Notes: a model not told the origin generated them from the sequence alone. DNA of 64,000 nucleotides from Candidatus Acidiferrales bacterium (GCA_036513895.1 DATBYF010000048.1:754-64753); one strand, 5' to 3'; counted from the first letter of the stretch, positions 507 through 63,758 are shown. Numbers and translations are program-made.

Positions 507-532
507 TTGCGTTTCTCCCCGATCTAGCTTGT

Positions 533-545
533 TTCACAATGTGAA
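533..545. promoter_or_regulatory. Perfect palindrome TTCACA-A-TGTGAA in the divergent VanA-like/IclR intergenic region (candidate operator)
   Basis: Read directly: ttcacaatgtgaa has 6-bp perfect arms. It lies 27 nt upstream of the VanA-like ATG and is followed by a second tgtga. Confidence 0.3.
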
Positions 546-610
546 CTGTGATTTCATATTGACATTACGGGAATTCTATCTACAATGCGGCGGTCGTCAA
601 GCAAAAGTTC

Positions 611-2670: not shown

Positions 2671-2671
2671 C

Positions 2672-3064: not shown

Positions 3065-3082
3065 GGCCGTCCTCCTTAATGC

Positions 3083-35479: not shown

Positions 35480-35587
35480 AGGCGCGAATTTTATGCTGCG
35501 GCCTCATTCAAGTCAACGCAGCACGGCTATTCAGATGTGGAATTGGTCGATTGGATTGGCAAGTAAATCCACCACGGTACGGATGTA

Positions 35588-38473: not shown

Positions 38474-38538
38474 GGATGCGAATGTTATGCTGCGAACCTA
38501 CTCAAGTCAACGCGGGGCATCGCTTTAGGTGCGTCGTG

Positions 38539-41670: not shown

Positions 41671-41679
41671 GATTATTCG

Positions 41680-42786: not shown

Positions 42787-43071
42787 GCTCGTATTTTCAT
42801 AATCGTGATGGCGTTTCAGGCTGGGTTTCAAATGATTCTCATTCCTTCGATTGCGAAGCAAAATTCGCGCCTTTAGATAGATGCGATAGATGAACCAGCG
42901 GCAAGAGATTCTTAGCCATGTACTATTACTCTACACTGAGAACATAGTTCCCTTAAAAAGAGATGTGTTGCGATGCGAAAAGACTGAGAACAAAGGAGGA
43001 ATCGCGAGGTGCCGTCTAACGAGAGGGTGAAAGTTCGGAGTTTTATTGGAACCTAGCGGCGGCGAGGCAAT

Positions 43072-46000: not shown

Positions 46001-46221
46001 CTCATCTGAATTTCGAGCGGAATGGTGACTTGCTGCTCGATTTGTTCCGCGGAGATCCCCGGCCACTGCGTGATGATCTCGACATAGTTGTCCGCCACGT
46101 CGGGATAGGCTTCTACGGGAAGTTGATGAAATGACACCGCACCCCAGCCGAATAGAAAAAGAGCGGCTGCGAGGACGAGGAGACGATTCTCTAAAGCGAA
46201 ATCGACAACCTTGCGGATCAT
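43072..46221 (-). CDS. RND efflux pump, heavy-metal-efflux (CzcA/CusA) family, pair 2
   Basis: Track ORF, 1049 aa, with GALDFGMVVDGAVVMVENI. Its start abuts the stop of the upstream adaptor gene. Confidence 0.85.
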   Translation of the reverse strand: MIRKVVDFALENRLLVLAAALFLFGWGAVSFHQLPVEAYPDVADNYVEIITQWPGISAEQIEQQVTIPLEIQMSGIPHITHLRSFSLFGLSDLKLIFDDEEENAWDRERVLERLSQVTLPPGINPQMGTDWSPVGQIYFYTLHSTNPQYDPMELKSIEDWVIEKNFKAVPDVVDVSSFGGPTREYQVRVDPDKLISYGLSLAQVEQQLTNNNANAGGSFIESGLQQLNIREVGLVKNVQDIENTVIVTKNGTPIRVKDIAQVAQGPKIRLGQTAKAIHREDGKIIDDGDVVSGIVLLRKGANADVALRGIHAKVKELNERILPAGVKVIPFIDRSDLVHFTTHTVLRNLTEGIILVAIILFLFLGNIRGAIIVALTIPFSLLFAATCLSLKGIPANLLSLGALDFGMVVDGAVVMVENIVRHMSERQDGNNRRKPIQVIAEAAHEVQRPVFYAIAIIITAYLPIFTLQRVEGRLFKPMAWTVTFALLGAIIFSIVIAPVLASFFFGKGVREWRNPVMEFLKTRYRSAARWAIEHRLVTIGVAAAGLLIAIYLTFGGVIGSEFLPHLDEGALWVRGTLVPSTGPTEGIRVMNQARTLLCSFPEVPQCWSQVGRPDDGTDTTGFFNTEFFVDLKPKEEWRPVFHENKDELIAAMNRELEKIPGVTWGFSQPIEDNMEEAVSGVKGELATKVYGDDLKVLEEKADQIVNVMRQVKGIEDLGVFRALGQPNINFEVDREQAARYQINVSDIQDAIQTAAGGTALTQVLQGEARYDLVLRYLPQYRTTEQAIENIRLLSPSGERVSLAQLCKIKEQDGASEIYREGNERYVAIKYSVRGRDLGSAVEEAIKKVNAQVQLPRGYHIDWEGEYESEKRAEARLLVIVPLTIMVIYLILYMMFRSPKWAALILATVVMGSFGGLLALLFTGTHFSVSSGVGFLALFGVSVQTGVIMLEYINQLRARGHSIEDSAIEGAVLRLRPIMMTMLVATLGLLPAALSHAIGSDSQRPFAIVIVGGLMVNLAMSIFILPTLYVWFAREGDRLPDVEPDFEASV

Positions 46222-47394
46222 CTACTGGTCCACTGAATTTTCGAATACCAGAGCGTTCAGAATTACCTTTGTTCCGGGGGTTATGCCCGACGCCACCTCC
46301 TGCATGTTGGCAGGAAGCGTATTTCCAGTGACGATTTCGACTCTCCGAAATTTGTTATCTCCTTCAGGAACGAAGACCCAGTCGCGATCACGTAAATGCA
46401 AGATTGCAGCACTGGGAATCGTGGTGTGAACTTCCTGCTTCTGTCCGTGAAAAGTAGCGGTCGCAAACATGCCAGGGCGGATGAATCCGGGATTGCCGAC
46501 TTCAATTCTGACTTTCGATGCGCGAGTGGCTGGATCGAGAACGGCGCCAATGTTGCTAATTGTGCCCTTCAGAACCTTGTCAGGATATGCGTTCAATTTG
46601 ATATCGGCGGTCTCGCCCAGGCGAACGTTTGGCAAAGCATTTTCGTACACATCGCAAACGATCCAAACGAAGGACAAATCGGAGATCGTGAACGGGTTCT
46701 TGGCGGACAAGCTCTGTACGCCCGCTGCGTTGGTCACTTGCTGGTCGGTAATCACCCCCGAAATGGGCGCGTAAATATCGACTATTCCGGTGGGATGATC
46801 GGGATCGTTACCGAGGAGTCGAAGATGTTCCTCGGTGGTTTCGACGGCGACCTTCGCGTCGTCTTCGGCGTCTTGAGCGATTTCAAGTTCCGACTCCGGG
46901 ATGGCGCCGTGGGCGAAGAGATCTTTGGAGCGAGTGATTTGCTTGCGCGCGAGAAGTTCGTCGGCAACGGCTTTGCGGTAATCGGAGTAACCGCCGGAAA
47001 CATCGTCACTTCGGACGCGCAACAAGAGTTGACCCTTGTGCACCGAGTCTCCTAGCCGCGCGCGAATGTCGACAACGCGACCGGAGGCCAGCGAAATCAC
47101 GGGCACCGTCCGTGCAACATCCGGGCTTACCGCACCTGTGGCTGACAATTGCGAAGCGGCATTGTGCCCGACTGCGGTAAATAAGGGGAATTGCTCAGGA
47201 TGGTCGACCTGAAACACGTTCGAATCCTGCTGGTTTTCGACCTGAGCGAGCGGCGGCGCCTCGGCTGCCGGGTCGCTCTCGGATGAACCACAACCCGCCA
47301 GACACAAAGTCAGTGCGCTCAGAAAAAGTGCACGAGCGATTGCCGGAAAAATGCTGGGTCCGGCATACGCGTGAAAGAAACACGCTTGCTTCAT
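46222..47394 (-). CDS. RND periplasmic adaptor (membrane fusion protein), pair 2
   Basis: Track ORF, 390 aa, with lipobox LCLAGC and an MFP domain pattern. Confidence 0.8.
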   Translation of the reverse strand: MKQACFFHAYAGPSIFPAIARALFLSALTLCLAGCGSSESDPAAEAPPLAQVENQQDSNVFQVDHPEQFPLFTAVGHNAASQLSATGAVSPDVARTVPVISLASGRVVDIRARLGDSVHKGQLLLRVRSDDVSGGYSDYRKAVADELLARKQITRSKDLFAHGAIPESELEIAQDAEDDAKVAVETTEEHLRLLGNDPDHPTGIVDIYAPISGVITDQQVTNAAGVQSLSAKNPFTISDLSFVWIVCDVYENALPNVRLGETADIKLNAYPDKVLKGTISNIGAVLDPATRASKVRIEVGNPGFIRPGMFATATFHGQKQEVHTTIPSAAILHLRDRDWVFVPEGDNKFRRVEIVTGNTLPANMQEVASGITPGTKVILNALVFENSVDQ

Positions 47395-47895: not shown

Positions 47896-48123
47896 AACAT
47901 GCGGCGCAGCAGCCTACCGTTCTTCCAGGATCCTGCGCCTTATACTTTTGATGCTATCTCGAAGCTTGGCGGCGACGCAATCTAGTTGACCGAGGTGGGA
48001 GCAAACCAGTTAGCTGGCAGCGCGGGCAGCCAGAGTTATGTTGACACCCCCATATACCCGCCGCTAAGATTTGCGTCCTAGTTGACCATCTGTCCGGGTG
48101 GTGTGCCCGGCGGGAGATTCATC

Positions 48124-49179
48124 ATGAAAAAAGCTATTTGGACCGTGACGGTCTTGGCGTGTCTTTTTGCGACTTGCGCGGAAGCTCGGCCTCAGAGCAG
48201 TCCACCGCCAGCTGGCGTTACAGCGGCGCCCGCGGCCGTGCCCGCCGTCGCTCCAGCCCCGGCCCAAGGGCGAAAGAAGCGGATCGCTGTTTTCGATTTC
48301 GACTTCGCCACGGTGCAGTCCAGTTCTGCGGCGATATTTGGTCAGAATGTGGACGTCGGCAAAGGAATCTGCGATCTTCTCGTGAGATATCTGGTGCAGG
48401 ACGGCACGTATTCGGTGATCGAGCGAAAGTCACTCGACAAAATCATGGCCGAGCAAAATTTCTCGAATAGCGACCGCGCAAACCCAGCGTCTGCGGCCAA
48501 GATTGGAAAATTGCTTGACGTTGACGCCATTATCGTCGGCAGCGTCACGCAATTTGGAAACGAAACGAAAAACAAGAATTTCGGAGGTAACGGAGGCAAT
48601 TGGGGCGGTTTTGGAGTCGGAGGGGTCGGACATAAGAGCTCGAAGGCGGTCGTGGTCGTTGACGCCCGGTTGGTAGATATTGACACCGCCGAGATCCTTG
48701 GCGTTGCTGACGGCAAAGGCGAGTCAAAGCGCGATAGCACTTCCCTTCTGGGAGGCGGTGGTAATTGGCACGGATTTGGCGGGGGCAACGCGGATTTTGG
48801 CAGCAGCGACTTCCAGCAGACGATTATCGGAGAAGCGATAAATGCGGCGGTTCAGCAGTTGAGCACTGGAATTATCGCTGACAACACGAAGCTTCAGACT
48901 CGCACAATTTCTGTTTCGGGGCTGGTCGCGGCAGTGGATGGCGGGCAGGTTATCCTCAATGTGGGCGGGAAAGCCGGCTTGAAGATTGGGGACCAGCTTA
49001 CGGTCGAACGCGTGACGCGCGAAATCAAGGATCCATCAACCGGCGCGGTGATCCGCAGAATGACATCTCCGGTTGGCACGATTCGCATCACCGATGTGGA
49101 CGATATTTCTTCTGTCTGCACGCCTGTTTCAGGGACTGATTTCAAGGTGGGAGACGCGGTCAAGACGATCACACAATAG
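48124..49179 (+). CDS. CsgG/HfaB-family lipoprotein-like protein
   Basis: Track ORF 48082..49179 trimmed to ATG 48124 (MKKAIWTVTVLACLFATC). KKRIAVFDFDF...GKGICDLLVRYLVQDGTYSVIERKSLDKIMAEQNF...DAIIVGSVTQFG fits the CsgG-like fold. It carries Gly-rich inserts. Confidence 0.6.
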   Translation: MKKAIWTVTVLACLFATCAEARPQSSPPPAGVTAAPAAVPAVAPAPAQGRKKRIAVFDFDFATVQSSSAAIFGQNVDVGKGICDLLVRYLVQDGTYSVIERKSLDKIMAEQNFSNSDRANPASAAKIGKLLDVDAIIVGSVTQFGNETKNKNFGGNGGNWGGFGVGGVGHKSSKAVVVVDARLVDIDTAEILGVADGKGESKRDSTSLLGGGGNWHGFGGGNADFGSSDFQQTIIGEAINAAVQQLSTGIIADNTKLQTRTISVSGLVAAVDGGQVILNVGGKAGLKIGDQLTVERVTREIKDPSTGAVIRRMTSPVGTIRITDVDDISSVCTPVSGTDFKVGDAVKTITQ

Positions 49180-49288: not shown

Positions 49289-49318
49289 TTGACAATTTCA
49301 ACAACACACTCGTAGAAT
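49289..49318 (+). promoter_or_regulatory. Candidate sigma-70-type promoter of the sigma-54 activator gene
   Basis: TTGACA (49289-49294), 18-nt spacer, TAGAAT (49313-49318), about 35 nt upstream of the TTG start at 49354. Confidence 0.35.
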
Positions 49319-49353
49319 CACCGCGCGCACTGGGGCGCGCACTTTCCGTCGAA

Positions 49354-50775
49354 TTGCGCCGTTCCGTGTCTGCGGAGCCCAATTTGACGCCTGCCGGCAC
49401 ATCCAATCCCAAAGTCGCAGTGATTGATGCGGACGAATCGTTCCGCTCCGGGATTTCCGCGGACCTCGGAGACGAATTCGAAATTCTCGAAGGCGATGAT
49501 TTCGAAGCCGCGTACCACCATATTCAGGAAAGCGGACTGGATGTGCTTCTGCTCGGCTTGCCCTTGCCTTCGGGCGGGGTTCGCGAAAGCATTCAGCTCC
49601 TCAACCGGCTCGCCGAGAGTGAAATTGATACGCTCGTCATCGTACTGAACGAAGACAATAACAAGGCTCCGGCGCTCAAATTGATCGAGGCAGGATGCTA
49701 CGACTACTTCGTCAAGCCGGTGGATACGGACGTCGTTCGCGCCTTGATGCGCCGGGCGATCAAGAAGCTCCATATCCAGCGCGAAAATCGCATTTTGCGC
49801 GAAGAGGTTTCTCGCAAACAGTTTGGCGGCGATCTCATCGGCTCGACCGATTCGATGCGCGACCTGCTCGAAACCATTCGGAGGATGGCTCGCGCTTCCA
49901 CCAGCGTGATCATCCGCGGCGAAAGCGGAACCGGAAAAGAGTTGGTCGCCCGTGCGCTCCATGAGCAGGGTCCGCGGCGGACGAAACCGTTCATCAGCGT
50001 AAACTGCGCGGCGCTGCCTGAAACTCTCATGGAGGCTGAACTTTTCGGCTACGAACGCGGAGCTTTCACTGGTGCTGTGGCCACGAAAGAAGGCCGGATC
50101 GAGCTGGCTAACCATGGCACATTATTCCTCGATGAAATCGCGACGCTCACGCCCGCGCTGCAATCGAAACTCCTCAGAGTGCTCGAGGATCACGCGCTGA
50201 TCCGGCTCGGTGGCAAGAAGTCCATCAAAGTTGATTTCCGGCTGGTCAGCGCGACGAATGAAAACCTTGAGGAAATGGCTAAGACTGGCAGATTCCGCGA
50301 GGATCTCTACTACCGGATCCACGTGGTGCCGATTTTTATTCCGCCGTTGCGCGAGCGCGTGGAAGATATTCCTCTGCTCATCGACTATTTCGTAAGCGTT
50401 TACTGCGCGGCGAATCGCACGCCAGCGAAACGCATTGCCGAAGATGCCCTTCAGGCGCTGAAGCGCTACGCATGGCCTGGAAACGTTCGCGAGCTTCAGA
50501 ACGTCGTGCAGCGGTTTGTTCTGATGACTGATTCGGACATGATCAATTTGAAGGACCTTCCGAGCGATGTTGTCCAAGCTGCTGGCAAGGGGACCAAGGG
50601 CCGGTTCCGACTGCCGTCAAGCGGCATCAAGCTCAATGAGGAACTCGACGCATTCGAGCGCCAATGGGTGGAAACGGCGCTGGCTCAGGCCGATCAGGTG
50701 AAGTCGGAGGCCGCGCGGTTGCTTGGCGTCGATAGGAACCGAATCAATTATCTCTGCCGGAAGTACGATCTTTAG
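49354..50775 (+). CDS. Sigma-54-dependent enhancer-binding protein (NtrC/Fis family) with atypical receiver-like N-domain
   Basis: Track ORF, 473 aa. Its AAA+ core has GESGTGKE (Walker A), LFLDEI (Walker B) and the sigma-54 contact loop ERGAFTGA. The C-terminal Fis-type HTH is EAARLLGVDRNRINYLCRKY. The start (TTG 49354) is uncertain. Confidence 0.9.
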   Translation: MRRSVSAEPNLTPAGTSNPKVAVIDADESFRSGISADLGDEFEILEGDDFEAAYHHIQESGLDVLLLGLPLPSGGVRESIQLLNRLAESEIDTLVIVLNEDNNKAPALKLIEAGCYDYFVKPVDTDVVRALMRRAIKKLHIQRENRILREEVSRKQFGGDLIGSTDSMRDLLETIRRMARASTSVIIRGESGTGKELVARALHEQGPRRTKPFISVNCAALPETLMEAELFGYERGAFTGAVATKEGRIELANHGTLFLDEIATLTPALQSKLLRVLEDHALIRLGGKKSIKVDFRLVSATNENLEEMAKTGRFREDLYYRIHVVPIFIPPLRERVEDIPLLIDYFVSVYCAANRTPAKRIAEDALQALKRYAWPGNVRELQNVVQRFVLMTDSDMINLKDLPSDVVQAAGKGTKGRFRLPSSGIKLNEELDAFERQWVETALAQADQVKSEAARLLGVDRNRINYLCRKYDL

Positions 50776-50784
50776 CCTGCCGTC

Positions 50785-50818
50785 GTTGAAAAAACAAACA
50801 CGCGATTAAAACTTCAAC
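50785..50818 (+). promoter_or_regulatory. Upstream dyad GTTGA-N24-TCAAC, module 1 (candidate enhancer/UAS)
   Basis: The same dyad, with identical 24-nt A-rich spacing, occurs at the same distance (~115 nt) upstream of each of the three -24/-12 promoters. Confidence 0.45.
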
Positions 50819-50914
50819 ACATCCGGGACGTGCAGCGAATTGGTACTACAACCCGGCTCAGTCCTAAGTGGCTTAAATCGAATAGAATAGGCCCGCGTGG
50901 CGCGACTGCGAGTT

Positions 50915-50930
50915 TGGCATGAGGTGTGCA
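50915..50930 (+). promoter_or_regulatory. Sigma-54 (-24/-12) promoter, module 1
   Basis: TGGCATgaggtGTGCA. GG and GC are at the canonical spacing of TGGCAC-N5-TTGCA. It lies ~55 nt upstream of sORF1 and next to an EBP gene. Confidence 0.7.
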
Positions 50931-50984
50931 ATATAGATATGCGTCGCCCACGAGGGCAAACCCAAATCGAGGAGATTCACGAAA

Positions 50985-51068
50985 ATGACAACGAAAAAGA
51001 CCCAACTGAAGTCGGCCAAGAAGAGCAACAAGATCGTCGCGTTGACGACCCACCTTCCCAAGCCGTAA
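50985..51068 (+). CDS. Small Lys-rich peptide, 27 aa: MTTKKTQLKSAKKSNKIVALTTHLPKP (unannotated sORF 1)
   Basis: Below the ORF-track size cutoff. It has a GAGGAG SD 10 nt upstream, ATG...TAA, and is followed by a strong terminator. Two paralogs in the window differ by synonymous or conservative changes and in-frame indels. Confidence 0.7.
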   Translation: MTTKKTQLKSAKKSNKIVALTTHLPKP

Positions 51069-51116
51069 GATCGCGGCCCTGTCTCGCTGCAAGCGAGAAG
51101 CGGCCACACGAAATCT

Positions 51117-51154
51117 GCGGGGTTGCCAAGCACTGGCAACCCCGCTATTTTTTT
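51117..51154 (+). terminator. Rho-independent terminator of sORF 1
   Basis: Perfect 12-bp stem gcggggttgcca/tggcaaccccgc, 5-nt loop, then T7 run. Confidence 0.85.
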
Positions 51155-51216
51155 GTGCTGACGAGTCGCTGAAAAACAATCGAGAGTTGCTATATCTTTG
51201 ATCAATTGGAGGGCAA

Positions 51217-52035
51217 TTGTCTCAATCGCGAAGGAAACGAAAAGCGCCGCGCCGGTCGCCGTCCTACGAAGCCATCGGACAATTTTACGATTCTCTTTGG
51301 CTGGATAATCCGCGGGCGTGGACAGCTGCCCGGAGCCGGCTGCTGGAACCGATTGTTTCTGGGGCGCGGCGAGTTTGCGAACTCGGATGCGGTACCGGCG
51401 TAACGGCAATGGAATTCGCGCGCCGCGGACTAAAGGTTTTCGCGCTCGATTATTCTCGCGAAATGTGCCGCGTCACCCGCGAAAAGGCTCTTGCGGAAGG
51501 CCTCGACGTCCAGGTTGCTCGCGGCGATATGCGAACGTTCCGTTTGCCGGTGAAGGTAGATCTCGTCACTTCTGAATGGGGAGTCATCAATCATTTGCGG
51601 CGTAAGGCCGAGCTAGCGCAAACATTTCGCGCGGTCGCCCGCGCGGTAAAGCCTGGAGGCTACTTTTTTTTCGATCTTCATCAGCAAAAACTATACGAAG
51701 AGGGTTGGCCCAAGGCAGTAATTGGCGATGGAGTGACCGCCGAAGAGGGGAAGAAATTCTTCGCGGCTCAGCACGGCGGATATGACCGAAAGAACGGCAA
51801 AGGCTGGACGGAAATAACCATTTTCGTTCGCAGGGCCGGCGGCCTGTGGCAGCGCCGCGGGGAACGCATCGAAGAAATTTGCTGGTCTCAAGGAGAGATT
51901 GTTCGAGACCTCAAGCGCGCCGGGTTTCAACTCCTGCGCGTCTGTGATTTCGCCGATATCTGTGCTGCGCCAAGTCCGAAAAGAGGGCCCGACGGCATGC
52001 GTACGATGTATCTCGCCCGGCTGAAAAGCAGGTAG
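51217..52035 (+). CDS. Class I SAM-dependent methyltransferase
   Basis: Track ORF, 272 aa, TTG start with GGAGG just upstream. Motif I is VCELGCGTGVTAMEF, followed by an acidic loop FALDYS and motif post-I/II DLVTSEWGVINHL. Confidence 0.8.
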   Translation: MSQSRRKRKAPRRSPSYEAIGQFYDSLWLDNPRAWTAARSRLLEPIVSGARRVCELGCGTGVTAMEFARRGLKVFALDYSREMCRVTREKALAEGLDVQVARGDMRTFRLPVKVDLVTSEWGVINHLRRKAELAQTFRAVARAVKPGGYFFFDLHQQKLYEEGWPKAVIGDGVTAEEGKKFFAAQHGGYDRKNGKGWTEITIFVRRAGGLWQRRGERIEEICWSQGEIVRDLKRAGFQLLRVCDFADICAAPSPKRGPDGMRTMYLARLKSR

Positions 52036-52105
52036 ACGCATGCTCCTGGTGTAGGGCGTGGTACCCCTCCCGGGCGCAACACGAGTTTGAATTTCGGGAT
52101 GTATC

Positions 52106-52139
52106 GTTGAAAAAGCGAACGCGAGTTGAAAATTCCAAC
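52106..52139 (+). promoter_or_regulatory. Upstream dyad GTTGA-N24-CCAAC, module 2 (candidate enhancer/UAS)
   Basis: Same architecture as module 1, with one mismatch in the right arm. Confidence 0.4.
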
Positions 52140-52235
52140 GCATTTGACGTATTGGCTGGGTTCGTACTAAAACCAAGGCTGCTGCTAAGCTATGTAGATT
52201 CAGTATGTTACGCCGTATCGGTTCGACCGCGAGTT

Positions 52236-52251
52236 TGGCACGAGATGTGCA
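52236..52251 (+). promoter_or_regulatory. Sigma-54 (-24/-12) promoter, module 2
   Basis: TGGCACgagatGTGCA with canonical GG/GC spacing. Confidence 0.7.
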
Positions 52252-52305
52252 ATATAGATATGCGTCGCCCACGAGGGCAAACCCAAACCGAGGAGATTCA
52301 CGAAA

Positions 52306-52389
52306 ATGGCAACGAAAAAGACCCAACTGAAGTCGGCCAAGAAGAGCAACAAGATCGTCGCGTTGACGACCCACCTTCCCAAGCCGTAA
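52306..52389 (+). CDS. Small Lys-rich peptide, 27 aa: MATKKTQLKSAKKSNKIVALTTHLPKP (unannotated sORF 2)
   Basis: Same SD, frame and stop as sORF 1. The single coding difference is T2A. Confidence 0.7.
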   Translation: MATKKTQLKSAKKSNKIVALTTHLPKP

Positions 52390-52437
52390 GATCGCGGCCC
52401 TGTCTCGCTGCAAGCGAGAAGTGGCCACACGAAATCT

Positions 52438-52473
52438 GCGGGGCTGCCAAGGCTGGCAGCCCCGCAATTTTTT
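52438..52473 (+). terminator. Rho-independent terminator of sORF 2
   Basis: 12-bp stem gcggggctgcca/tggcagccccgc plus a T6 run. Relative to terminator 1, the T-to-C change in the 5' arm is matched by an A-to-G change in the 3' arm (compensatory). Confidence 0.85.
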
Positions 52474-52545
52474 GTACGCGTGAGATAGTTCATCTCTTAG
52501 AGCGTATCCCCTGATCCTTCTCAGCCTTCGCCGACACTCCGTGAC

Positions 52546-52579
52546 GTTGAAAAAATAAACGAAAGATGAAAACGTCAAC
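52546..52579 (+). promoter_or_regulatory. Upstream dyad GTTGA-N24-TCAAC, module 3 (candidate enhancer/UAS)
   Basis: Same dyad and spacing as module 1, although the flanking sequence has diverged. Confidence 0.45.
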
Positions 52580-52672
52580 ATGTGCTCGATTTTTGTAGGC
52601 GAGTACTACAACCCGGCTGACTTTAAGTCACCTAATTTCAACGGTGTAACGCGGGCCATCTGCAGTTGCGTT

Positions 52673-52688
52673 TGGCACCGGGCGTGCA
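52673..52688 (+). promoter_or_regulatory. Sigma-54 (-24/-12) promoter, module 3
   Basis: TGGCACcgggcGTGCA with canonical GG/GC spacing. Confidence 0.7.
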
Positions 52689-52742
52689 TCCTTTCCAAGC
52701 GTTGCCCACGAGGGCAAACCCACAGCGAGGAGATACACGAAA

Positions 52743-52823
52743 ATGGCAAAAAAGACCCTGAAATCTGGCAAGAAGGCCAACAAAGTTGTAGCGTTGACCG
52801 CCCACGTGCCCGTGAAGCCGTAA
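52743..52823 (+). CDS. Small Lys-rich peptide, 26 aa: MAKKTLKSGKKANKVVALTAHVPVKP (unannotated sORF 3, diverged paralog)
   Basis: It has a GAGGAG SD. Against sORF 1 there are 5 synonymous changes, 6 conservative replacements (T/A, A/G, S/A, I/V, T/A, L/V) and three indels that are all multiples of 3 nt. That pattern indicates selection on the reading frame. Confidence 0.65.
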   Translation: MAKKTLKSGKKANKVVALTAHVPVKP

Positions 52824-52871
52824 TGGCCCGGCTCTGGCTCGCCTCAGGCGAGCGGGGCGACGAACGAAATC

Positions 52872-52909
52872 TGCGGGGTTTGCCGCAAGCGGCAGCCCCG
52901 CATTTTTTT
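52872..52909 (+). terminator. Rho-independent terminator of sORF 3 (also at the 3' end of the convergent M50-HlyD gene)
   Basis: GC-rich stem gcggggtttgccgc/gcggcagccccgc followed by a T8 run. The stop of the minus-strand gene is at 52917. Confidence 0.8.
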
Positions 52910-52916
52910 TGAAGAT

Positions 52917-55058
52917 CTACCAGATTTGCGAATGAACCCAGCGCCACACGCCGGCAGCAGCCTGCCACGCAAATGGACGATGCTTCCCGCTGATTTTTGC
53001 AGTGCCGGTCATTCCCTCGATCAAGCTACCGTCTGTATTCGGGAAAACCATCTCCACTGCAAAGTAATTCATCACTTCCTGGCCGCGTCTTTCCACTTTG
53101 TTCGGTTGTGAAATCGGGCGATCGGCAGCGGCAGCAGGAAGAATTCGCTCGACGCGGCCAGCGGAGGTTCGAAACGGCTGATCGGATACTTTTAGTTTCA
53201 CGGGCGCGCCCACGGCTACTTCCCCGACCTCCCAGTCGTGGACGAGAATTCGAGCCCGCATCTCGGAACGGTCAACCACTCGTACAAATTCATCTCCCTG
53301 GTTAAGGAAATCTCCCTCGTGCGGTTCGATATCGCCCTCGACGACGATTCCATGGATCGGGGATCTGAGCGCCAAGCCAGCGATGTGCGATCGCACGAGG
53401 GAAAGCTCTGAGGACAGTCGCGCGCGCTCATCCTCAGCGCGTGCCGCCTCGCCTCGCGAGGTGTGCTGTTCTGCAATACGGAGCGCTCCCTCTATATTGC
53501 CGAGTTGGCTCGCGAGAGAAGCGGCCCGCGAGTCAAGTTCCGGATTCTTCAGCTCGGCAAGCACATCGCCAGCTCGCACCTCCTGGCCCGAACGGACCAA
53601 GATATTCGCGAGCTGGCCGCCAACGGGCGATCGAATTTCCGCATTCTGTCCTGGCTCCAGAATGAATTCGCTCGAGACCTTACTCGAGAAAGGGGGCACG
53701 AATAGCACGAGCGCGACGACAGCAACGAACACCTGTTGCGCGCGAGTGAGTTTCCATTTCAAGTAAGCCTCCCTGATGCTCCAGTACCATGCGCGAATGC
53801 GCGGGATTTGCTGCTGAACGCGACTTCGGAGGAGAAGAAATAGGGCCAGCGCCGTAGCAAAGTAGCCCCAGTCACCAAGTACGCTGACAAAAATATTATT
53901 CACAAAGATTAAGGCGATCACGAGAACCGCGACGCCGTAAACCATCGCGGTGGTGCCGAACGCCAGAAATATGCGGCGCTGCCTGCGGCTTGCGGCGGGC
54001 AATTCGACTTTGCGACGCAGCAAATACTTCTGCCACCAAGCCTGCGCGAATTCAATTGAATCTTCCCGAAGAGAATCAATCTGAACGAATTGCGCGAGCG
54101 CGTAGTACCCATCAGCCTTAATCAGCGGGTTGAGGTTGACGGCGATACCCGCGATGCCTGTGAAGAGCAAAGTTTTGTAGGCCAAATCATTCACCAGCGA
54201 TCCGGGCAGCGTAAACGCCCAAACCAAGGTGGCGAGCGCGCACAGCAGAAGTTCCACCCAAATTCCCGCGAATATGGTCAATTGCCGCGGCATTGTCGTA
54301 TCGAAAATCAATATGTCGGTGGTGTCCGTGTAAAAAGCCGGCGTGAAGTAAATGAGAATGAAACCCATCTGGGGAACTTCTCCGCCGTAGTGTTTGCAGG
54401 TGAGGCCGTGCGCAAATTCGTGGATGCCACCGACGGCCAGCATGATGATCCAGAAGGCCCAGAGGTCGTACGCGCTTTTGTTTGAGAACGAATACAAGGC
54501 GGCGCTGTCCTGCTGAATGCGGTACCAATCGCCCGCAAGAATGGCCATTGCAGCAATGAACGCGGCGATGCAGAAAATGATAAAGCCGCGCGTGTAAATC
54601 CAGCCCAAGTAGGGGTCAAGCCACGCGAGGGTCTTGTCCGGATTCCATGCCTTGAATTGGATATAGAGCAGGCTAGATTCTGTGCGGCCTTTACGCTCAT
54701 CGCGAATTCGCTCGAGCATGGCGAGATTTTTCTCGCCGACGGTACGGACCCAGAGGTTCGATTCGACCGTATCCAGGAAATCGAGCACGCTCGTCTCGTC
54801 GAGTGAAGAATCGGGATGGCGCGCGTTCATTTCTTCCGCTACTTCAGCTGCTGTTCGCGTTCCATCGCAGAGCGTCAGTAGCTCGTATTCGGTCGGGCCA
54901 TAGCGGTTATATGAGGCAGTATCCGGATCTTTAATGACGAAACTAGCTTTTCCGGCGACCTGCTGCGCGCTGATTTTCAAATCTTCGCGGAGCTTGGGGC
55001 GGTGAAGTCCTTTTGCCAGGACGCTCGAAATCTGCAGGCTGGTTGGCCCGTATCGCAT
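52917..55058 (-). CDS. Polytopic M50 (site-2-protease-like) zinc metalloprotease fused to a C-terminal HlyD/MFP-like domain
   Basis: Track ORF, 713 aa, with HEFAH (HExxH) inside a TM segment and NLNPLIKADGYY (NxxPxxxxDG third-ligand motif). There are several TM helices. The last ~270 aa have a barrel-sandwich/coiled-coil pattern (VGGQLANILVRSGQEVRAGDVLAEL...LRSPIHGIVV). Confidence 0.8.
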   Translation of the reverse strand: MRYGPTSLQISSVLAKGLHRPKLREDLKISAQQVAGKASFVIKDPDTASYNRYGPTEYELLTLCDGTRTAAEVAEEMNARHPDSSLDETSVLDFLDTVESNLWVRTVGEKNLAMLERIRDERKGRTESSLLYIQFKAWNPDKTLAWLDPYLGWIYTRGFIIFCIAAFIAAMAILAGDWYRIQQDSAALYSFSNKSAYDLWAFWIIMLAVGGIHEFAHGLTCKHYGGEVPQMGFILIYFTPAFYTDTTDILIFDTTMPRQLTIFAGIWVELLLCALATLVWAFTLPGSLVNDLAYKTLLFTGIAGIAVNLNPLIKADGYYALAQFVQIDSLREDSIEFAQAWWQKYLLRRKVELPAASRRQRRIFLAFGTTAMVYGVAVLVIALIFVNNIFVSVLGDWGYFATALALFLLLRSRVQQQIPRIRAWYWSIREAYLKWKLTRAQQVFVAVVALVLFVPPFSSKVSSEFILEPGQNAEIRSPVGGQLANILVRSGQEVRAGDVLAELKNPELDSRAASLASQLGNIEGALRIAEQHTSRGEAARAEDERARLSSELSLVRSHIAGLALRSPIHGIVVEGDIEPHEGDFLNQGDEFVRVVDRSEMRARILVHDWEVGEVAVGAPVKLKVSDQPFRTSAGRVERILPAAAADRPISQPNKVERRGQEVMNYFAVEMVFPNTDGSLIEGMTGTAKISGKHRPFAWQAAAGVWRWVHSQIW

Positions 55059-55067
55059 CGGGAGTCC

Positions 55068-55982
55068 TTATGGCTTGGGCGATGCTGCGCCAGGGGGCCA
55101 CGCAACGCGGACGGCCATACCGGGGCTCAGCGCGGAAAGGCCGGAGCCGGTAAGCTGCATGGTCACGTCGTAGCTGTCGCTGGCCGGATCAACCATGGGA
55201 CTTACTTTAACGATTCGCGCCGTATACGAATGATCGGGATTCACGACGGAGAAAACCTGCGTGCTGTTGCCAATCTTGGGCCTTCCTCCCGAAGCTTCGG
55301 GCACTTGAACGTGAACCTCGAGCGGCTCGAGTTGGCTAATTCGGAAGCTCGGATCATCCTTAGCGACGTTCTGTCCCTGGCGCACGTAGCGGCGTACGGC
55401 GATGCCGGAGAACGGTGCCCGAAATTGAGTTTGTTCGACGTCGAACTTCAAACTCTGTATCTGCGCTTCACTACTCTTCACCAGCGCCTTGCAGCTCTCC
55501 GCATCGAACGCCGTCGCCTTTTCTTCGAATTGGGCCTCTTCGAGGTCTGCTTCGCTGCTCAGCCCGGCTTGCCGCAGGAGTTCCTGACGGCGCAGATTCG
55601 CTTCCTTGGCTTGGTGCTCGGCTTGTTTGTACTTCAGATTATTCTGCGCAACTTGTAAATCGGCCTGAGCCTTCTGCAACTCCATCTGGAGTGAGCGGTC
55701 ATCGAGGCGCCCAAGAATTTCGCCGGCCTTCACCTTTTGGCCTTCCTCTACATTGACTTGCTGGACGATCCCTTCGCGTTGCGCGCGAACATCCACTTCA
55801 TGCTCGACAGTGAGCACGCTGAGAATTTTCCCGAGGTTGGGTGCGCCTGAATCTGCGGGGCTCGGGCTTGGAGACGTTACACGCGCTGGCGCGGCAGCAG
55901 AGGGCGTCGCGGCATTCTCGCCGCCGCAGCCCGCCGTACCCAATGCCAAAACGCCAACTAAAGTCCACGTTCTACGTCTCAT
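55068..55982 (-). CDS. HlyD/RND-adaptor-type membrane fusion lipoprotein
   Basis: Track ORF 55068..56009 trimmed to ATG 55982 (MRRRTWTLVGVLALGTAGC lipobox). It has the lipoyl-like motif GIVQQVNVEEGQKVKAGEILGRLDD, a coiled coil, and FRAPFSGIAV. Confidence 0.8.
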   Translation of the reverse strand: MRRRTWTLVGVLALGTAGCGGENAATPSAAAPARVTSPSPSPADSGAPNLGKILSVLTVEHEVDVRAQREGIVQQVNVEEGQKVKAGEILGRLDDRSLQMELQKAQADLQVAQNNLKYKQAEHQAKEANLRRQELLRQAGLSSEADLEEAQFEEKATAFDAESCKALVKSSEAQIQSLKFDVEQTQFRAPFSGIAVRRYVRQGQNVAKDDPSFRISQLEPLEVHVQVPEASGGRPKIGNSTQVFSVVNPDHSYTARIVKVSPMVDPASDSYDVTMQLTGSGLSALSPGMAVRVAWPPGAASPKP

Positions 55983-56021
55983 GATCGCCCCTAAAACAAA
56001 ACTGCACATGGCTCGCTGCGG

Positions 56022-58445
56022 CTACGGCAGCCAGACCCAGATCTTCTCCCACAGCCAGCGAAATGGTGAACGAAAAAGCGCGTACCCGATAGGATACCAG
56101 CCTGTGCCGAACCATCCACCGTTCGCGCGAATGCGAGCACGGCCTGCCATTCCGTCCCGTGCCCGCATGCCGGCATTATCGAATACTGCCCGGATCACAA
56201 AAAATTCTTCGCCTTCGATGGCCTCGGAACGAACCCCCACGCGGTCCACGGTGCCTTTGAATGTTTGGGTAGGGTACGCGTTTAGCTTAAGGGCCACACT
56301 TCTTCCGGCGCGGATAAGATTCAAATCCGTCTCAGGAACATTCATATCAATTGCCATCTGTTGTTGCTGGACGATTTCGCCGAAGGCTTGCCCTTCCGCC
56401 AACATGGCGCCCGTTTTTTCTTCGATCTTGGGGGTCACAACGACGCCGTCAATTGGGGCACGTAACTGCGCATCCGCCACCCGCTGTTCCTCTAGCGTTA
56501 CATCCGCTTCTGCAGCTTCGGCGCGGAGGCGCGCCTGAGATGCAACCGTCAGGTCGCGCCTAAATTCAGCTTCTGCGAAATCGTGCTGCGCGAGGGCAAG
56601 GTCAGATTTCGCGCGCTCAAGCTTGACGCGATCCTCACCGTCATCGAGTTGAGCCAATGTTTGACCGCGCGTGACAACGTCTCCTTCATGCACAAACACG
56701 CGCCTGACAATGCCCCCGGCAACGGCGCTCACTATGCGGCGATCCGCGGGAACAACTGTTGCGTTGGTGCTGACGCGAACCGGCCACGGAACGATCGTAA
56801 GCACCATCGCGGCGAGTGCTGCTTTCCAGCCATACTCAAACCAGCGCGACTGTGCGCCCGCGCCAAAAAACTGCTGCCTTTTTTCCGCCAGAGGCTGGAG
56901 AAATCCAGCCAGAGGCACTTGCTGATAGAGTTGCGCGTTTCGAATTGCCACGGTGGTCTGATTCGCGAGAATTGACACCGTTTCGCGCTGGTTATCACTG
57001 AGAAATTCCGGATCGCCGTTGAGCATGCAGAGGACGCCGACGGTGCCTTGATCGTCGCGCAGCGGGAGCGCGTAGAAGCCGCCGTATCCATGCTCGTCGA
57101 GAAAGCCAGAAGCCACATCGCGCGCAGATTCGGGATCAGTTTCCCAACCTTCCTCGGATTTGTCGGCGCGGACCGCAGCTTCCTGGGTTGAAACCCACTC
57201 CAGAAGTTTCCGCAACGCATCCATCTCATCGGTCTTCGGCACTTCCTCCTCGCCTGACACCGCGCCAAGAACGAACTTATTGCGATCAAAAAATCCGATG
57301 ACGCACTGGTCAAACGTGATGACGGTGCCGGCCTGTTGCGCTACCGTCGTCAAGACATGATCGAGATCGAGCGTCGAGGTGATGGCCTGGCTAATTTTAA
57401 GAAGCGCGTCGAGCTCGTGCAGTTTCCGTTCGGATTCGAGAAGATTGGCGTTATTCAGCGCCACCGCTGCCTGCTCGCTGATGCTCGAAAGAAAGAAAAC
57501 ATCATCTTCGGTGAATGCCGTTCCGTCCTCTTTGTTTATGAGCTCGATTACGCCGATGACCTGCTCCTCTTTACGTAACGGCGCACAAATGATGGTCTGA
57601 ATCTGGAATTCGCCTCCAGCCTTAATGCGCTCAGCGAGTGATTCATCGTCAGCGGGATGTTCAATAAGTTTCGCGTTGCCGCTGCGTGCCGCGTCGGCCA
57701 GATGTCCAGACTCCACCGAGATGGTCGTGCCTTCTTCGACGGTTGGGTCCTCGCCATCTTTCTGAGCGAGTGTCAGCTCATCTCCATTGCCGCTAACCAG
57801 CCATAAGTTGCAGGCCTGGGCGTGAAGAATGTCGCGCATTTTGCCGGCCACGATGGGGGTGAGTTCGCTGAGCTCGACTGTGGAATTAAAAATTCTGCTG
57901 ATGTCGTAGAGAGATGTGAGGCGTTCGATGGTTGTGAGCTGGTTATCACGTTCGACATCAGCTTCAACGAGCAACCCGTCGGCCTGTGAGGCCAGCCTCG
58001 CCGCAGTTTCCAGGAATTCGGCGTCTTCAGCAGTAAATCCGCCCTTTTTGTTCAGAGCTTCGACGACGCCGGCCGTGCCTTCCATTCCGGGAAACGGAAC
58101 GAGCAGCACCGATTGAATCGCTTTGTGCTGAGAAGCGGAAAAGTGGGTGAGGGAATCGGCGTCAATTTCCTTGCCGGAAGCCCGATAGACAGAGGATTGC
58201 TCGAAGGCAGCGGCAAGGACTCCATCCGCAACGCGATCGCTCGCTGGTGCAAGCTTTTCGTCAGGCTGAGCCCATCGCGCCCGGCTCCCAAGCTCGCCAT
58301 CTTCCCCTTCGGCCAACCACAGAAAAACGGCCCGGGCACCAATCGCGGTGCCCACTCGAGCGACAAAGGTTCTGCTCAACGTCGAACGATCTCGGCAGGC
58401 AAAAAGGACGCTCGCGAGCTCAACGAGCGCCGATGAATTCTCCAT
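56022..58445 (-). CDS. Triple-GAF domain protein with one TM helix and a C-terminal HlyD/MFP-like domain
   Basis: Track ORF 56022..58550 trimmed to ATG 58445 (MENSSALVELASV...). It has three GAF-like units, each ending in a ...FTxxDxxFL...A.ALxNAxL type pattern. These are followed by a TM helix (AALAAMVLTIVPWP) and GGIVRRVFVHEGDVVTRGQTLAQLDD...LRAPIDGVVV. Confidence 0.75.
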   Translation of the reverse strand: MENSSALVELASVLFACRDRSTLSRTFVARVGTAIGARAVFLWLAEGEDGELGSRARWAQPDEKLAPASDRVADGVLAAAFEQSSVYRASGKEIDADSLTHFSASQHKAIQSVLLVPFPGMEGTAGVVEALNKKGGFTAEDAEFLETAARLASQADGLLVEADVERDNQLTTIERLTSLYDISRIFNSTVELSELTPIVAGKMRDILHAQACNLWLVSGNGDELTLAQKDGEDPTVEEGTTISVESGHLADAARSGNAKLIEHPADDESLAERIKAGGEFQIQTIICAPLRKEEQVIGVIELINKEDGTAFTEDDVFFLSSISEQAAVALNNANLLESERKLHELDALLKISQAITSTLDLDHVLTTVAQQAGTVITFDQCVIGFFDRNKFVLGAVSGEEEVPKTDEMDALRKLLEWVSTQEAAVRADKSEEGWETDPESARDVASGFLDEHGYGGFYALPLRDDQGTVGVLCMLNGDPEFLSDNQRETVSILANQTTVAIRNAQLYQQVPLAGFLQPLAEKRQQFFGAGAQSRWFEYGWKAALAAMVLTIVPWPVRVSTNATVVPADRRIVSAVAGGIVRRVFVHEGDVVTRGQTLAQLDDGEDRVKLERAKSDLALAQHDFAEAEFRRDLTVASQARLRAEAAEADVTLEEQRVADAQLRAPIDGVVVTPKIEEKTGAMLAEGQAFGEIVQQQQMAIDMNVPETDLNLIRAGRSVALKLNAYPTQTFKGTVDRVGVRSEAIEGEEFFVIRAVFDNAGMRARDGMAGRARIRANGGWFGTGWYPIGYALFRSPFRWLWEKIWVWLP

Positions 58446-58629
58446 GGCCTTCCCTGGCTGGAATTCTGAAACACCCGTACCGGCTGCTTGAGTGACGGGC
58501 GAATGCCCGCGGGGTGCGAAACGCGGGCAGCCTAACAAATGCGGATGCAAGCGTCAATACGGCCCCTTGGTGTCTCAGGGCTTGATTGCACTGCACTTTT
58601 CAGCTAGTTTGACTGGGCGCGAGGCGCAG

Positions 58630-58965
58630 ATGGAAATTCTGATACGCAAGGCAGGCACCGCCACGATTCTCGATCTGAACGGACCACTTCGACTGGGTGA
58701 TTCGGAGCAGGCGTTCAAGGAGCAAATCCAGAAGTTGGTGGATGCCGGGACGCCTCACATCGCGGTGAATCTATCCGGCGTGACCGAACTCGATAGCTCA
58801 GGTATCGGAGCGCTTGTTCGATCGTTCACCACCGTCAAGCGGGCTGGCGGCAAATGCATCTACTATGCCCCAACACAGCGCATAAAAATGCTTCTCAAGA
58901 TGGTCAGGCTCGATAGCGTGCTCGATATTGTGGATGACGAGGCCGGCGCTCTCGCCCGCGTGTGA
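58630..58965 (+). CDS. STAS-domain protein (anti-sigma-factor antagonist, SpoIIAA-like)
   Basis: Track ORF 58492..58965 trimmed to ATG 58630, giving 111 aa. It reads ...ATILDLNGPLRLGDSEQAFKEQIQKLVDAG...NLSGVTELDSSGIGALV... with the conserved DSSG Ser site. Confidence 0.8.
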   Translation: MEILIRKAGTATILDLNGPLRLGDSEQAFKEQIQKLVDAGTPHIAVNLSGVTELDSSGIGALVRSFTTVKRAGGKCIYYAPTQRIKMLLKMVRLDSVLDIVDDEAGALARV

Positions 58966-63576: not shown

Positions 63577-63758
63577 GAAGATTAAGGCTACGGGACGTCA
63601 CCCGTGATGTCAATCCAAAATCTGTCTCGGATTGTAAACGAAATGTAACTTCGCCGGGACATACTTTGAACAGGAATCATCCCGAGGGCCAACTTCAATC
63701 GCTGGCATACTATATGCATTCGAAGCTGTTCTGTTTAGAGCATCTTGCGATTAAGCCG

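Follow-up and report, generated by a model that had tools for sequence, protein, structure and literature searches.

Background

In the type I secretion of double-glycine bacteriocins and microcins by peptidase-containing ATP-binding cassette (ABC) transporters (PCATs), a membrane peptidase coupled to a membrane fusion protein (MFP) (and TolC) conduit recognises and removes an N-terminal leader, from substrates that range from peptides to proteins. Here we describe a locus that may follow a similar logic without an ABC transporter—a 49.3–59.0 kb segment of a 64-kb stretch (hereafter the window; all coordinates refer to the whole stretch) of a Candidatus Acidiferrales (Acidobacteriota) metagenome-assembled genome, in which short lysine-rich peptide genes with sigma-54-type promoters converge on an operon for three adaptor-type membrane proteins, one of them fused to an M50 protease. 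We moderately favour reading it as a locus for leader-peptide-directed processing (cleavage) and export.

Several described systems come close. Kamneva, Poudel and Ward (2015, PLoS One, PMC4452313) noted a neighbourhood in which proteins with Peptidase_M50 plus HlyD, HlyD/biotin-lipoyl, and GAF plus HlyD domains are grouped around a secondary SecA_DEAD protein, sometimes with an outer-membrane efflux protein (OEP); they termed the module "type I secretion-related" and proposed its role from domain content only, and a substrate, a recognition element of ribosomally synthesised and post-translationally modified peptides (RiPP recognition element, RRE), a leader motif, or control by sigma-54 and an enhancer-binding protein (EBP) is not reported there. 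Daptide clusters and their precursors were discovered through a protein family in which a site-2 protease, the leader peptidase of these clusters, carries an N-terminal RRE (Ren et al., bioRxiv 10.1101/2023.03.08.531785), and in the epipeptide system EpeXEPAB a role in cleavage and export has been proposed for the M50 protease EpeP (PMC10885120).

Compared with the module of Kamneva et al., our locus has the same three membrane proteins, each with the same domain make-up, and the OEP that is sometimes present there occurs likewise in two distant relatives (L111 and L114, below). It differs in that no SecA_DEAD gene was found, here or in 114 related loci, and in that a STAS protein, an EBP, and leader-bearing short open reading frames (sORFs) belong to the conserved unit. 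When the motor domain of E. coli SecA served as tblastn query, neither the window nor the 114 loci (1.2 Mb) had a match at E ≤ 1e-3, and the precomputed Pfam lists of the related loci contain no SecA_DEAD. Literature searches for the peptide motif and for combinations of M50, HlyD, sigma-54, and RRE found no description beyond that of Kamneva et al. and no follow-up to it. A preliminary description of the stretch, made from its sequence alone, had proposed an undescribed system; the membrane triad, already noted in 2015, is not wholly undescribed, and what the locus has beyond it, without SecA_DEAD, is the EBP, the STAS protein, and a candidate substrate family with its recognition domain.

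With daptide clusters the locus has in common a predicted RRE–M50 fusion, several small precursor genes, and a class I methyltransferase, but the DUF-RRE protein, the oxidative decarboxylase of the alcohol dehydrogenase family, and the pyridoxal phosphate-dependent aminotransferase were not found in the locus or its flanks. Daptide precursors carry an invariant C-terminal Thr, whereas the window peptides end in Pro; here, moreover, a periplasmic adaptor forms part of the protease polypeptide, two further adaptors accompany it, the host is diderm, control is apparently by sigma-54, and both methyltransferase and protease score below the daptide family cut-offs. The likeness to PCATs lies in the logic, leader removal coupled to an MFP conduit, and the MFP is the only component of those systems present here: there is no ABC protein, C39 peptidase, or GG motif, nor an OEP in the window, and instead the leader ends in KPL or IAPA, recognition would fall to an RRE, and a metalloprotease is fused to the adaptor. 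The epipeptide loci (yydFGHIJ/EpeXEPAB) share an M50 protease and a small peptide gene, but their radical S-adenosylmethionine (SAM) epimerase and ABC transporter have no counterpart here, and their protease YydH lacks both RRE and adaptor fusion.

Results

A family of short peptide genes with a conserved leader and a free tail

The peptide genes of the window lie in three paralogous modules (mean column identity 83% over an alignment of ~400 nt; Table 1), each comprising, in order, a dyad, a −24/−12 promoter, a 5′ hairpin, a GAGGAG Shine–Dalgarno (SD) sequence, an ATG-initiated open reading frame (ORF), a second hairpin, and a strong terminator; the hairpin GCCCACGAGGGC, the GAGGAG, and the ATG are found in every one of them. 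All of these elements are where the preliminary description had placed them, save that the dyad of module 2 ends in CCAAC and so departs by one mismatch from the GTTGA-N24-TCAAC given for all three. Relatives of the three peptides form a family of ~100 distinct small ORFs in Acidobacteriota. Of 10,591 small ORFs, 127 matched a hidden Markov model (HMM) of the family core at E ≤ 0.01, hardly any of them false positives; within the window, the model matched the three sORFs only.

Several patterns of variation bear on whether these ORFs are translated. The ORF of module 3 differs from those of modules 1 and 2 by three indels of 3 nt each plus several synonymous changes, and entropy at codon positions 1, 2, and 3 is 0.89, 0.50, and 1.15, respectively (79 distinct core DNA sequences). 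Among 116 distinct genes, 110 have an SD-like motif ahead of them (95%, versus 16% at random positions) and 69 a terminator-like site behind them (versus 3% at random positions). Judged by these signatures, the sORFs are real coding genes.

Alignment of ~99 distinct peptides gave the core MAxKK(T/P)-[LVI]KK[GAS]KK[LI]xxxK[PKT]L, within a conserved N-terminal leader of ~20 amino acids, such as MAKKTLKSGKKANKVVAL (MAxKKT-[LVI]K[KS]xKK-x4-[KV]x[L] in the window peptides; [LVI]KKxKKLxxxKPL in the family), that is followed by an unconserved tail of 3–20 residues in the seed peptides (median 8). Mean pairwise identity is 63% in the 13-residue core versus 10% in the next eight residues. Median net charge is +8, Cys is virtually absent, and no hydrophobic segment is present; the C-terminal residues of the window peptides are ...PKP and ...VKP, and in some clades the core is followed by tandem repeats—(GTLQR)n, (GALTRP)n, (APGTVLR)n, or repeated xPLx(K/R) units. 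Because a conserved N-terminus with a free C-terminus is the pattern of leader and core rather than of a small folded protein, the alignment favours viewing each peptide as a leader with a short tail attached.

Nine peptides compared with NCBIfam and Pfam at E ≤ 10 had no match. The window peptides are absent from a collection of 15 billion proteins, where longer relatives are named only "hypothetical protein"; most family genes are shorter than the length minimum of gene callers. One member, the cluster of MEKKSKPVKGKKTAPVKPLMKRADLPAVKPLIKF, occurs on 436 contigs (NCBI, JGI, Logan, ENA), always as a "hypothetical protein", and the family is therefore abundant in sequenced environments.

Sigma-54 promoters at the peptide genes and their putative activator

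The motif TGGCA(C/T)-N5-GTGCA starts at the three promoter positions of Table 1 and nowhere else in the locus. A fourth such −24/−12-like motif in the window (TGGCATACTATATGCA, at 63703 within 63666..63718 on the plus strand) is preceded by a TTGAA-N23-TTCAA dyad and lies ~60 nt upstream of an ORF resembling flavin adenine dinucleotide-dependent oxidoreductases that leaves the window edge. Across the family, 100 of 124 genes have a GG-N10-GC promoter 30–75 nt upstream, versus one of 22 membrane operons; most of the other family genes are downstream cistrons of tandem pairs. For the membrane operon of the window a sigma-54 promoter was searched for and not found, which argues that the EBP would act on the peptide genes rather than on the machine. 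Of 93 distinct leader regions in the family, 64 have a short GC-rich hairpin close to the transcript 5′ end (11.6 ± 3.1 in shuffled sequences), with stems that vary in sequence (GCCC/GGGC, GCCCC/GGGGC, AGCC/GGCT, GAGC/GCTC).

The adjacent EBP is NtrC-type with a Fis-type helix-turn-helix (Pfam Response_reg, Sigma54_activat, AAA_lid_14, and HTH_8), so that the locus contains a GAFTGA-bearing AAA+ activator, GG-N10-GC promoters, and putative upstream activator sites. Promoter distribution and coding pattern together support the view, also that of the preliminary description, that the sORF peptides are the sigma-54/EBP-regulated output of the locus. In the receiver-like domain (49408..49830), a Gly (LLLGLPLP) stands at the phospho-acceptor position (Asp54 of NtrC) in the window and in three close relatives (L001–L003); a distant EBP (L109) retains Asp there, and no histidine kinase adjoins the EBP. 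Given this Gly in place of the phospho-acceptor Asp, the EBP is probably a pseudo-receiver protein not driven by a histidine kinase. The PEP-CTERM-box response regulator PrsR (TIGR02915) was considered as an identity for the EBP and rejected, as the match reaches 413 bits, below the cut-off of 502.6, and the peptides have no PEP-CTERM motif.

Conserved linkage of peptides, activator, and membrane operon

Linkage was examined in two independently retrieved sets of loci. A scan of 185,579 genomes (one genome per species) for the promoter-plus-hairpin DNA pattern found 24 places, 13 of them in Acidobacteriota, and all 13 continue with an SD and an ATG-initiated, lysine-rich sORF. Matches in five Thiobacillus genomes (L007, L008, L012, L023, L026) were set aside; they represent a conserved sigma-54 promoter of a secreted YceI-like gene, carry the GCCC-N4-GGGC hairpin without a lysine-rich sORF, and are unrelated to the locus. 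The second set, 80 metagenome loci, was picked by the M50 protein alone (48–85% identity to that of the window), and sORFs of the same kind lie at the same place in these loci.

Gene order is most fully visible on three megabase-sized contigs (L001–L003), whose M50 proteins are 77%, 67%, and 61% identical to that of the window: STAS / GAF-MFP, MFP, M50-MFP / sORFs / EBP. Wherever an acidobacterial locus of the pattern scan extends far enough to reveal its neighbours, this order is kept. Among metagenome loci with at least 3.5 kb of flank, 39 of 41 have an EBP orthologue (60–77% identity) convergent downstream of the M50 gene; over genome and metagenome loci together, EBP identity ranges from 60 to 94%. 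The gap between EBP and M50 gene, on the EBP strand, holds 108 of 115 family sORFs, and sORFs were found by HMM in 53 of 67 loci with at least 600 nt of flank, a figure that rises to ~60 of 67 after inspection by eye. The position of the STAS gene is kept in L001–L003, in the distant L109, and in many metagenome loci. Outer neighbours, by comparison, vary—pstSCAB-phoU in L056, a MacB-type ABC transporter and an esterase in L001–L003, and siroheme/sulfite reductase genes in the window—and DNA beyond ORF and hairpin is unconserved between clades. These genomic comparisons support a link between the peptides and the M50/HlyD operon that is conserved over ~100 loci, and the co-occurrence of lysine-rich sORFs, EBP, and M50–HlyD operon, which the preliminary description had named as a check, was borne out by HMM and neighbourhood analysis. 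In one locus (L077, ~2280..3830), about six extra family sORFs lie upstream of STAS on both strands, besides one in the EBP–M50 gap.

The MacB-type ABC transporter and esterase beside STAS in L001–L003 were considered as a missing pump. Because their place is taken by pstSCAB-phoU in L056 and they are absent from the window, they are not part of the system. The earlier claim that radical-SAM enzymes, ABC transporters, and outer-membrane factors are missing from the locus held; a CsgG-like gene does, however, lie just upstream of it, and two RND (resistance–nodulation–division) pumps, which are not conserved with the locus, lie further upstream. The CsgG-like gene adjoins the EBP also in L003, L005, L011, L015, L016, and L021 and in 0 of 80 metagenome loci; conserved beside the EBP only in the nearest clade, its product could be a clade-specific outer-membrane exit or reflect mere synteny.

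The methyltransferase is an accessory gene

The preliminary description had counted the methyltransferase as part of the system, which the comparison does not uphold. The gene is present in five of 13 genome loci and six of 54 metagenome loci having both EBP and M50 anchors, always inside the EBP–M50 interval and on either strand; by this distribution it is an accessory gene of a minority of loci. Its best NCBIfam match is daptide_MTase (NF041820), for which it scores 57.8 bits where the cut-off is 175. In nearest-clade loci with the methyltransferase (the window, L005, L015, L021, L025, L029), peptides tend to end in Pro (...LPKP, ...PVKP, ...LKRP, ...LKHP), and in nearest-clade loci without it they end in ...RPIL, ...RPIA, ...LPHK, or ...KVHA, in a small sample.

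An M50 protease between a predicted recognition element and a periplasmic adaptor

The M50 protein of the operon is a three-part fusion, with a PqqD-like RRE at residues ~28–100, an M50/site-2 protease at ~150–410, and, after a transmembrane segment, an MFP/HlyD part with an alpha-hairpin at ~455–713. Its protease motifs are HEFAH and NLNPLIKADG, and HExxH and NxxPxxxxDG are invariant in 21 homologues. No curated family that would name any component of the locus was matched. Among curated models, that of the daptide biosynthesis intramembrane metalloprotease (NF041824) scores highest for the fusion, with 166 bits over residues 33–409 against a cut-off of 300; the alignment spans model positions 11–361 of 379, and the RRE–site-2-protease layout is in common at a score below the cut-off. 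The YydH/LiaK model (NF058609) reaches only 34 bits against a cut-off of 225, and YydH, on which the preliminary description had drawn as a parallel, accordingly gives way to the daptide protease as closest relative.

Assignment of the N-terminus draws on weak profile matches and on fold. In the NCBIfam scan, PqqD models match residues 59–106 weakly; Pfam PqqD matches 11 of 12 N-terminal domains (best E = 2e-4), and a profile search of the PDB with this domain was not significant, PqqD appearing at E = 0.5. An AlphaFold2 (AF2) model of residues 28–97 has the order beta-beta-beta-alpha-alpha-alpha, with a predicted confidence (pLDDT) of ~85 in the isolated domain, and its top Foldseek matches in the PDB are all RREs—TbiB1 with leader, PqqD, and lasso-peptide B1 with leader, followed lower down by CteB and TglHI—the top six having E ~0.01–0.04, probability 0.98–1.00, and target TM scores of 0.50–0.64. 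The modelled fold supports a PqqD-like RRE at the N-terminus of the M50 protein, and because the protein would carry this element, the link between sORFs and M50/HlyD operon is mechanistically plausible. In a fold search with the full-length AF2 model, in which matches to the adaptor domain prevailed, MacA/MexA/AcrA were found at E = 1e-15. Lipoyl, alpha-hairpin, and beta-barrel parts make the C-terminal third of the protein a periplasmic adaptor, its hairpin as in TolC-docking adaptors.

Leader-like N-termini on larger proteins in distant loci

A scan of 1.84 billion representatives with the M50 protein gave 2692 clusters (at 50% identity) at E ≤ 1e-30, many of them full-length at 25–34% identity; the acidobacterial clade accounts for only two, the closest full-length representatives, at 77% and 57% identity. 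Six distant loci were readable (L numbers denote retrieved loci and percentages the identity of their M50 protein to that of the window). L109/L108 (34%) keep STAS, GAF-MFP, MFP, and M50-MFP with a convergent EBP, and between the genes lies a sigma-54-driven ORF that begins MAIEKKSLISNLNATKKAMLASRIAAPSS... and continues with 10–17 copies of SKGLSV. In L110 (31%), an uncalled 314-residue ORF (5950..6894, plus strand), interrupted by a masked N run, lies directly upstream of M50-MFP and reads MNKPMKLGIEKLEDKIAPGLL..., with a leader ...EKLEDKIAPG... followed by (GTKGTA)n. L112 (28%) has a convergent ORF built of PKPEGKFAM repeats; at 1..1123 of the same locus, a DUF692 gene of the MbnB/TglH/ChrH family and a 92-residue ORF, ~4 kb away from the GAF-MFP operon, may be a separate RiPP cluster. 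L113 (27%) encodes a 2017-residue acidic repeat protein starting MGEELKKKKKGLKADKLEERIAPAMM, and L111 (26%) has OEP, GAF-MFP, M50-MFP, and a small MFP together with a 1559-residue acidic repeat protein starting MTKRKMSKLSTKKLEDRIAPAI. In L114 (25%), EBP, small MFP, OEP, GAF-MFP, and M50-MFP run in one direction, and two divergent proteins start with MRHKKLHGGKELEDRISPAL and MSKKKLKGGKTLEDRIAPAF. The cargo candidates of L111, L113, and L114, 328–2017 residues long, have in common the N-terminus ...KKLEDRIAPA....

Likeness between these N-termini and the acidobacterial leaders was examined in both directions. An HMM of six distant leaders, run against the 10,591 small ORFs, placed the acidobacterial family on top (best E = 0.0096), about 40 of the top 45 matches being members of a family that makes up ~1% of the set. 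In the reverse search, the acidobacterial leader HMM ranked the distant cargo first among large-ORF N-termini, not significantly (E = 1.7–19), and the distant-leader profile found one match only in a protein database searched through a word index with a 40-residue minimum. The enrichment supports reading the lysine-rich KKLE...P(L/A) N-terminus as an address tag common to both groups, of which the window peptides would be the shortest bearers.

Layout of the locus

Features of the locus are collected in Table 1. The remaining structural claims of the preliminary description agree with it: the EBP gene with GAFTGA (Pfam domains, the motif read directly), a class I SAM methyltransferase between modules 1 and 2, the convergent operon of GAFx3-HlyD, lipoprotein HlyD, and M50-HlyD (Pfam, HEFAH, NLNPLIKADG, LGTAGC), and the divergent STAS protein (Pfam STAS). 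Further upstream, 32582..47394 (minus strand) encodes two Ser/Thr kinases that carry PD40/WD40 beta-propeller repeats, along with two RND pump/adaptor pairs; a similar kinase and RND pair flanks L001, and wider conservation was not found.

Table 1. Features of the locus and its upstream neighbour, with positions in the window
Feature	Position	Strand	Evidence or remark
CsgG-like outer-membrane lipoprotein gene, FlgT_C-like tail	48082..49179	+	Pfam CsgG 1.3e-36; possible accessory part
Sigma-54 EBP: receiver-like domain, AAA+ (GAFTGA), HTH_8	49354..50775	+	Pfam, NCBIfam; probable start TTG 49384
Module 1 dyad GTTGA-N24-TCAAC, putative EBP binding site	50785..50818	+	Read from sequence, alignment
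Module 1 −24/−12 sigma-54 promoter TGGCATGAGGTGTGCA	50915..50930	+	Motif scan, alignment
Transcript 1 5′-proximal hairpin GCCC-ACGA-GGGC	50946..50957	+	Alignment
sORF 1 MTTKKTQLKSAKKSNKIVALTTHLPKP, 27 aa	50985..51068	+	SD GAGGAG 50969..50974; family HMM E = 0.0059
Module 1 intrinsic terminator	51117..51155	+	
Class I SAM methyltransferase, accessory tailoring candidate	51217..52035	+	Pfam Methyltransf_25 6e-19
Module 2 dyad GTTGA-N24-CCAAC (one mismatch)	52106..52139	+	Read from sequence, alignment
Module 2 −24/−12 sigma-54 promoter	52236..52251	+	
Transcript 2 5′-proximal hairpin	52267..52278	+	Alignment
sORF 2 MATKKTQLKSAKKSNKIVALTTHLPKP, 27 aa	52306..52389	+	Family HMM E = 0.00082
Module 2 intrinsic terminator	52437..52474	+	
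Module 3 dyad GTTGA-N24-TCAAC	52546..52579	+	Read from sequence, alignment
Module 3 −24/−12 sigma-54 promoter	52673..52688	+	
Transcript 3 5′-proximal hairpin	52704..52715	+	Alignment
sORF 3 MAKKTLKSGKKANKVVALTAHVPVKP, 26 aa	52743..52823	+	Family HMM E = 0.00034
Module 3 intrinsic terminator	52873..52910	+	Read from sequence, alignment
RRE-M50-MFP fusion, 713 aa	52917..55058	−	Pfam Peptidase_M50 + HlyD_3/HlyD_D23; convergent to modules
MFP/HlyD-family periplasmic adaptor lipoprotein, lipobox LGTAGC	55068..56009	−	RND_mfp 148 bits (cut-off 94.9)
GAF x3 (cytoplasmic) + C-terminal MFP/HlyD (HlyD_D23) protein	56022..58550	−	Pfam; RND_mfp 97.4 bits; probable start near 58445
Divergent single-domain STAS protein (anti-sigma-antagonist fold)	58492..58965	+	Pfam STAS 9e-14; probable start 58630 = 111 aa as homologues

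Discussion

A proposed mechanism and the points that weigh against it

From gene content, coding status, the sigma-54 pattern, linkage, the RRE, M50, and MFP folds, the contrast in conservation between leader and tail, and the leader-like N-termini on distant cargo, we infer RRE–leader binding, a cleavage site, export, gating, methylation, and a biological role of the product, as follows. The EBP would bind the dyads and fire the three sigma-54 promoters, each giving a short monocistronic mRNA for a peptide of 26–27 residues with a net charge of ~+8. The cytoplasmic PqqD-like RRE of the RRE-M50-MFP protein would capture the leader, and the site-2-protease domain would cut near the leader's end, which reads ...KPL for the family and ...IAPA for the distant relatives. 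The freed tail, or the whole peptide, could then exit by a periplasmic conduit composed of the three proteins with adaptor domains plus an outer-membrane channel whose gene lies elsewhere, in a machine gated by the triple-GAF domain and the STAS protein; the methyltransferase, where encoded, may tailor the product.

A number of observations weigh against processing and export. No inner-membrane energiser (ABC, RND, major facilitator superfamily, or SecA-like) was found conserved with the acidobacterial loci, nor an outer-membrane factor in the window or conserved in those loci, and the membrane operon of the window stands outside the apparent sigma-54 control of the peptides. The scores behind the RRE are modest (Foldseek E ~0.01; Pfam E at least 2e-4; 166 bits versus a cut-off of 300), and the likeness between acidobacterial and distant leaders is significant as enrichment only, not per sequence. 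The peptides are polar and have no membrane-spanning or amphipathic segment typical of site-2-protease substrates, and tails of only 3–8 residues would be unusual end products. Finally, the EBP–M50 gap is without an sORF in four loci, measuring 63–76 nt in L053, L090, and L091 and 251 nt in L092.

Alternative explanations

Some of these points are also what one would expect if the peptides were cytoplasmic small basic proteins, binding nucleic acid, the ribosome, or the EBP, whose Lys-rich N-terminus is itself functional and for which the membrane operon is a mere long-standing neighbour of the EBP: a charge of ~+8 with no Cys and no hydrophobic segment, convergent and separate transcription units, a membrane operon with its own non-sigma-54 promoter, and the few loci that have EBP and M50 gene without sORFs between them. 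We consider this unlikely, however, as the linkage persists to 25–34% M50 identity while all other flanks change, the M50 protein bears a predicted peptide-recognition element, and the same leader type on large repeat and acidic proteins fits a targeting signal rather than a DNA or ribosome binder. The short (median 8 residues), unconserved tails, the handling of large proteins with the same leader type by distant homologues, and the tight regulation by a dedicated EBP would instead suit leader-only ligands that regulate the machine—as plugs or activators of RRE-M50-MFP, or as feedback to GAF and STAS—with the true cargo elsewhere. We hold that idea, too, to be improbable; the leader HMM matches only the three sORFs in the window, with no larger leader-bearing gene, and the continuum from 20-residue peptides through repeat peptides of 50–140 residues to proteins suggests one substrate class.

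That the transcripts rather than the peptides are the product, as sigma-54-dependent regulatory small RNAs (sRNAs) like the Qrr RNAs beside LuxO with incidental ORFs, is suggested by the EBP gene standing beside several short, terminator-ended, sigma-54-driven units with conserved 5′ and 3′ hairpins; LuxO–Qrr loci have in common with ours multiple such units, each with its own −24/−12 promoter and upstream activator site, beside an NtrC-family EBP. The transcripts here, by contrast, are mRNAs of a conserved peptide family, and the EBP scores 297 bits against the LuxO cut-off of 800. ORF, SD, and frame are kept over ~100 diverged genes with variation at third positions, it is the DNA outside ORF and hairpin that is not retained from clade to clade, and there is no significant Rfam match (best E = 0.08–0.2, over the terminator); because of the coding evidence and the lack of an Rfam match, we reject the sRNA explanation, which we regard as highly improbable. 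A strict methylated RiPP cluster, with the methyltransferase as class-defining enzyme and the M50 protein only as leader peptidase, would account for a methyltransferase that sits amid the peptide modules, recurs inside the EBP–M50 interval in 15 loci, and finds its best NCBIfam match in the daptide methyltransferase. Only a minority of peptide-bearing loci have the gene, though, its score is far under the cut-off, and other tailoring enzymes are none, so that this explanation appears quite unlikely.

Leader-directed processing and export thus remains the reading we prefer for the window. A wider version of it—that RRE-M50-MFP, GAF-MFP, and MFP, with an outer-membrane factor where encoded, constitute a widespread ABC-free, envelope-spanning secretion pathway addressed by a lysine-rich leader (KKLExxKPL/KLEDRIAP), with substrates from ~25 residues to 2000-residue repeat proteins, the tails in Acidobacteriota being sigma-54-regulated extracellular signals or antagonists—is tentative, and we regard it as rather doubtful at present.

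Significance

The RRE-M50-MFP family is large, and the locus adds to it a candidate substrate class with an address tag, a recognition domain, and a dedicated regulator, by which a conserved module with a hitherto unassigned role becomes directly testable. About 100 small peptide genes, unannotated or "hypothetical" in abundant soil bacteria, are flagged as its possible partners, and the system may define a new coupling of leader removal to passage across the diderm envelope.

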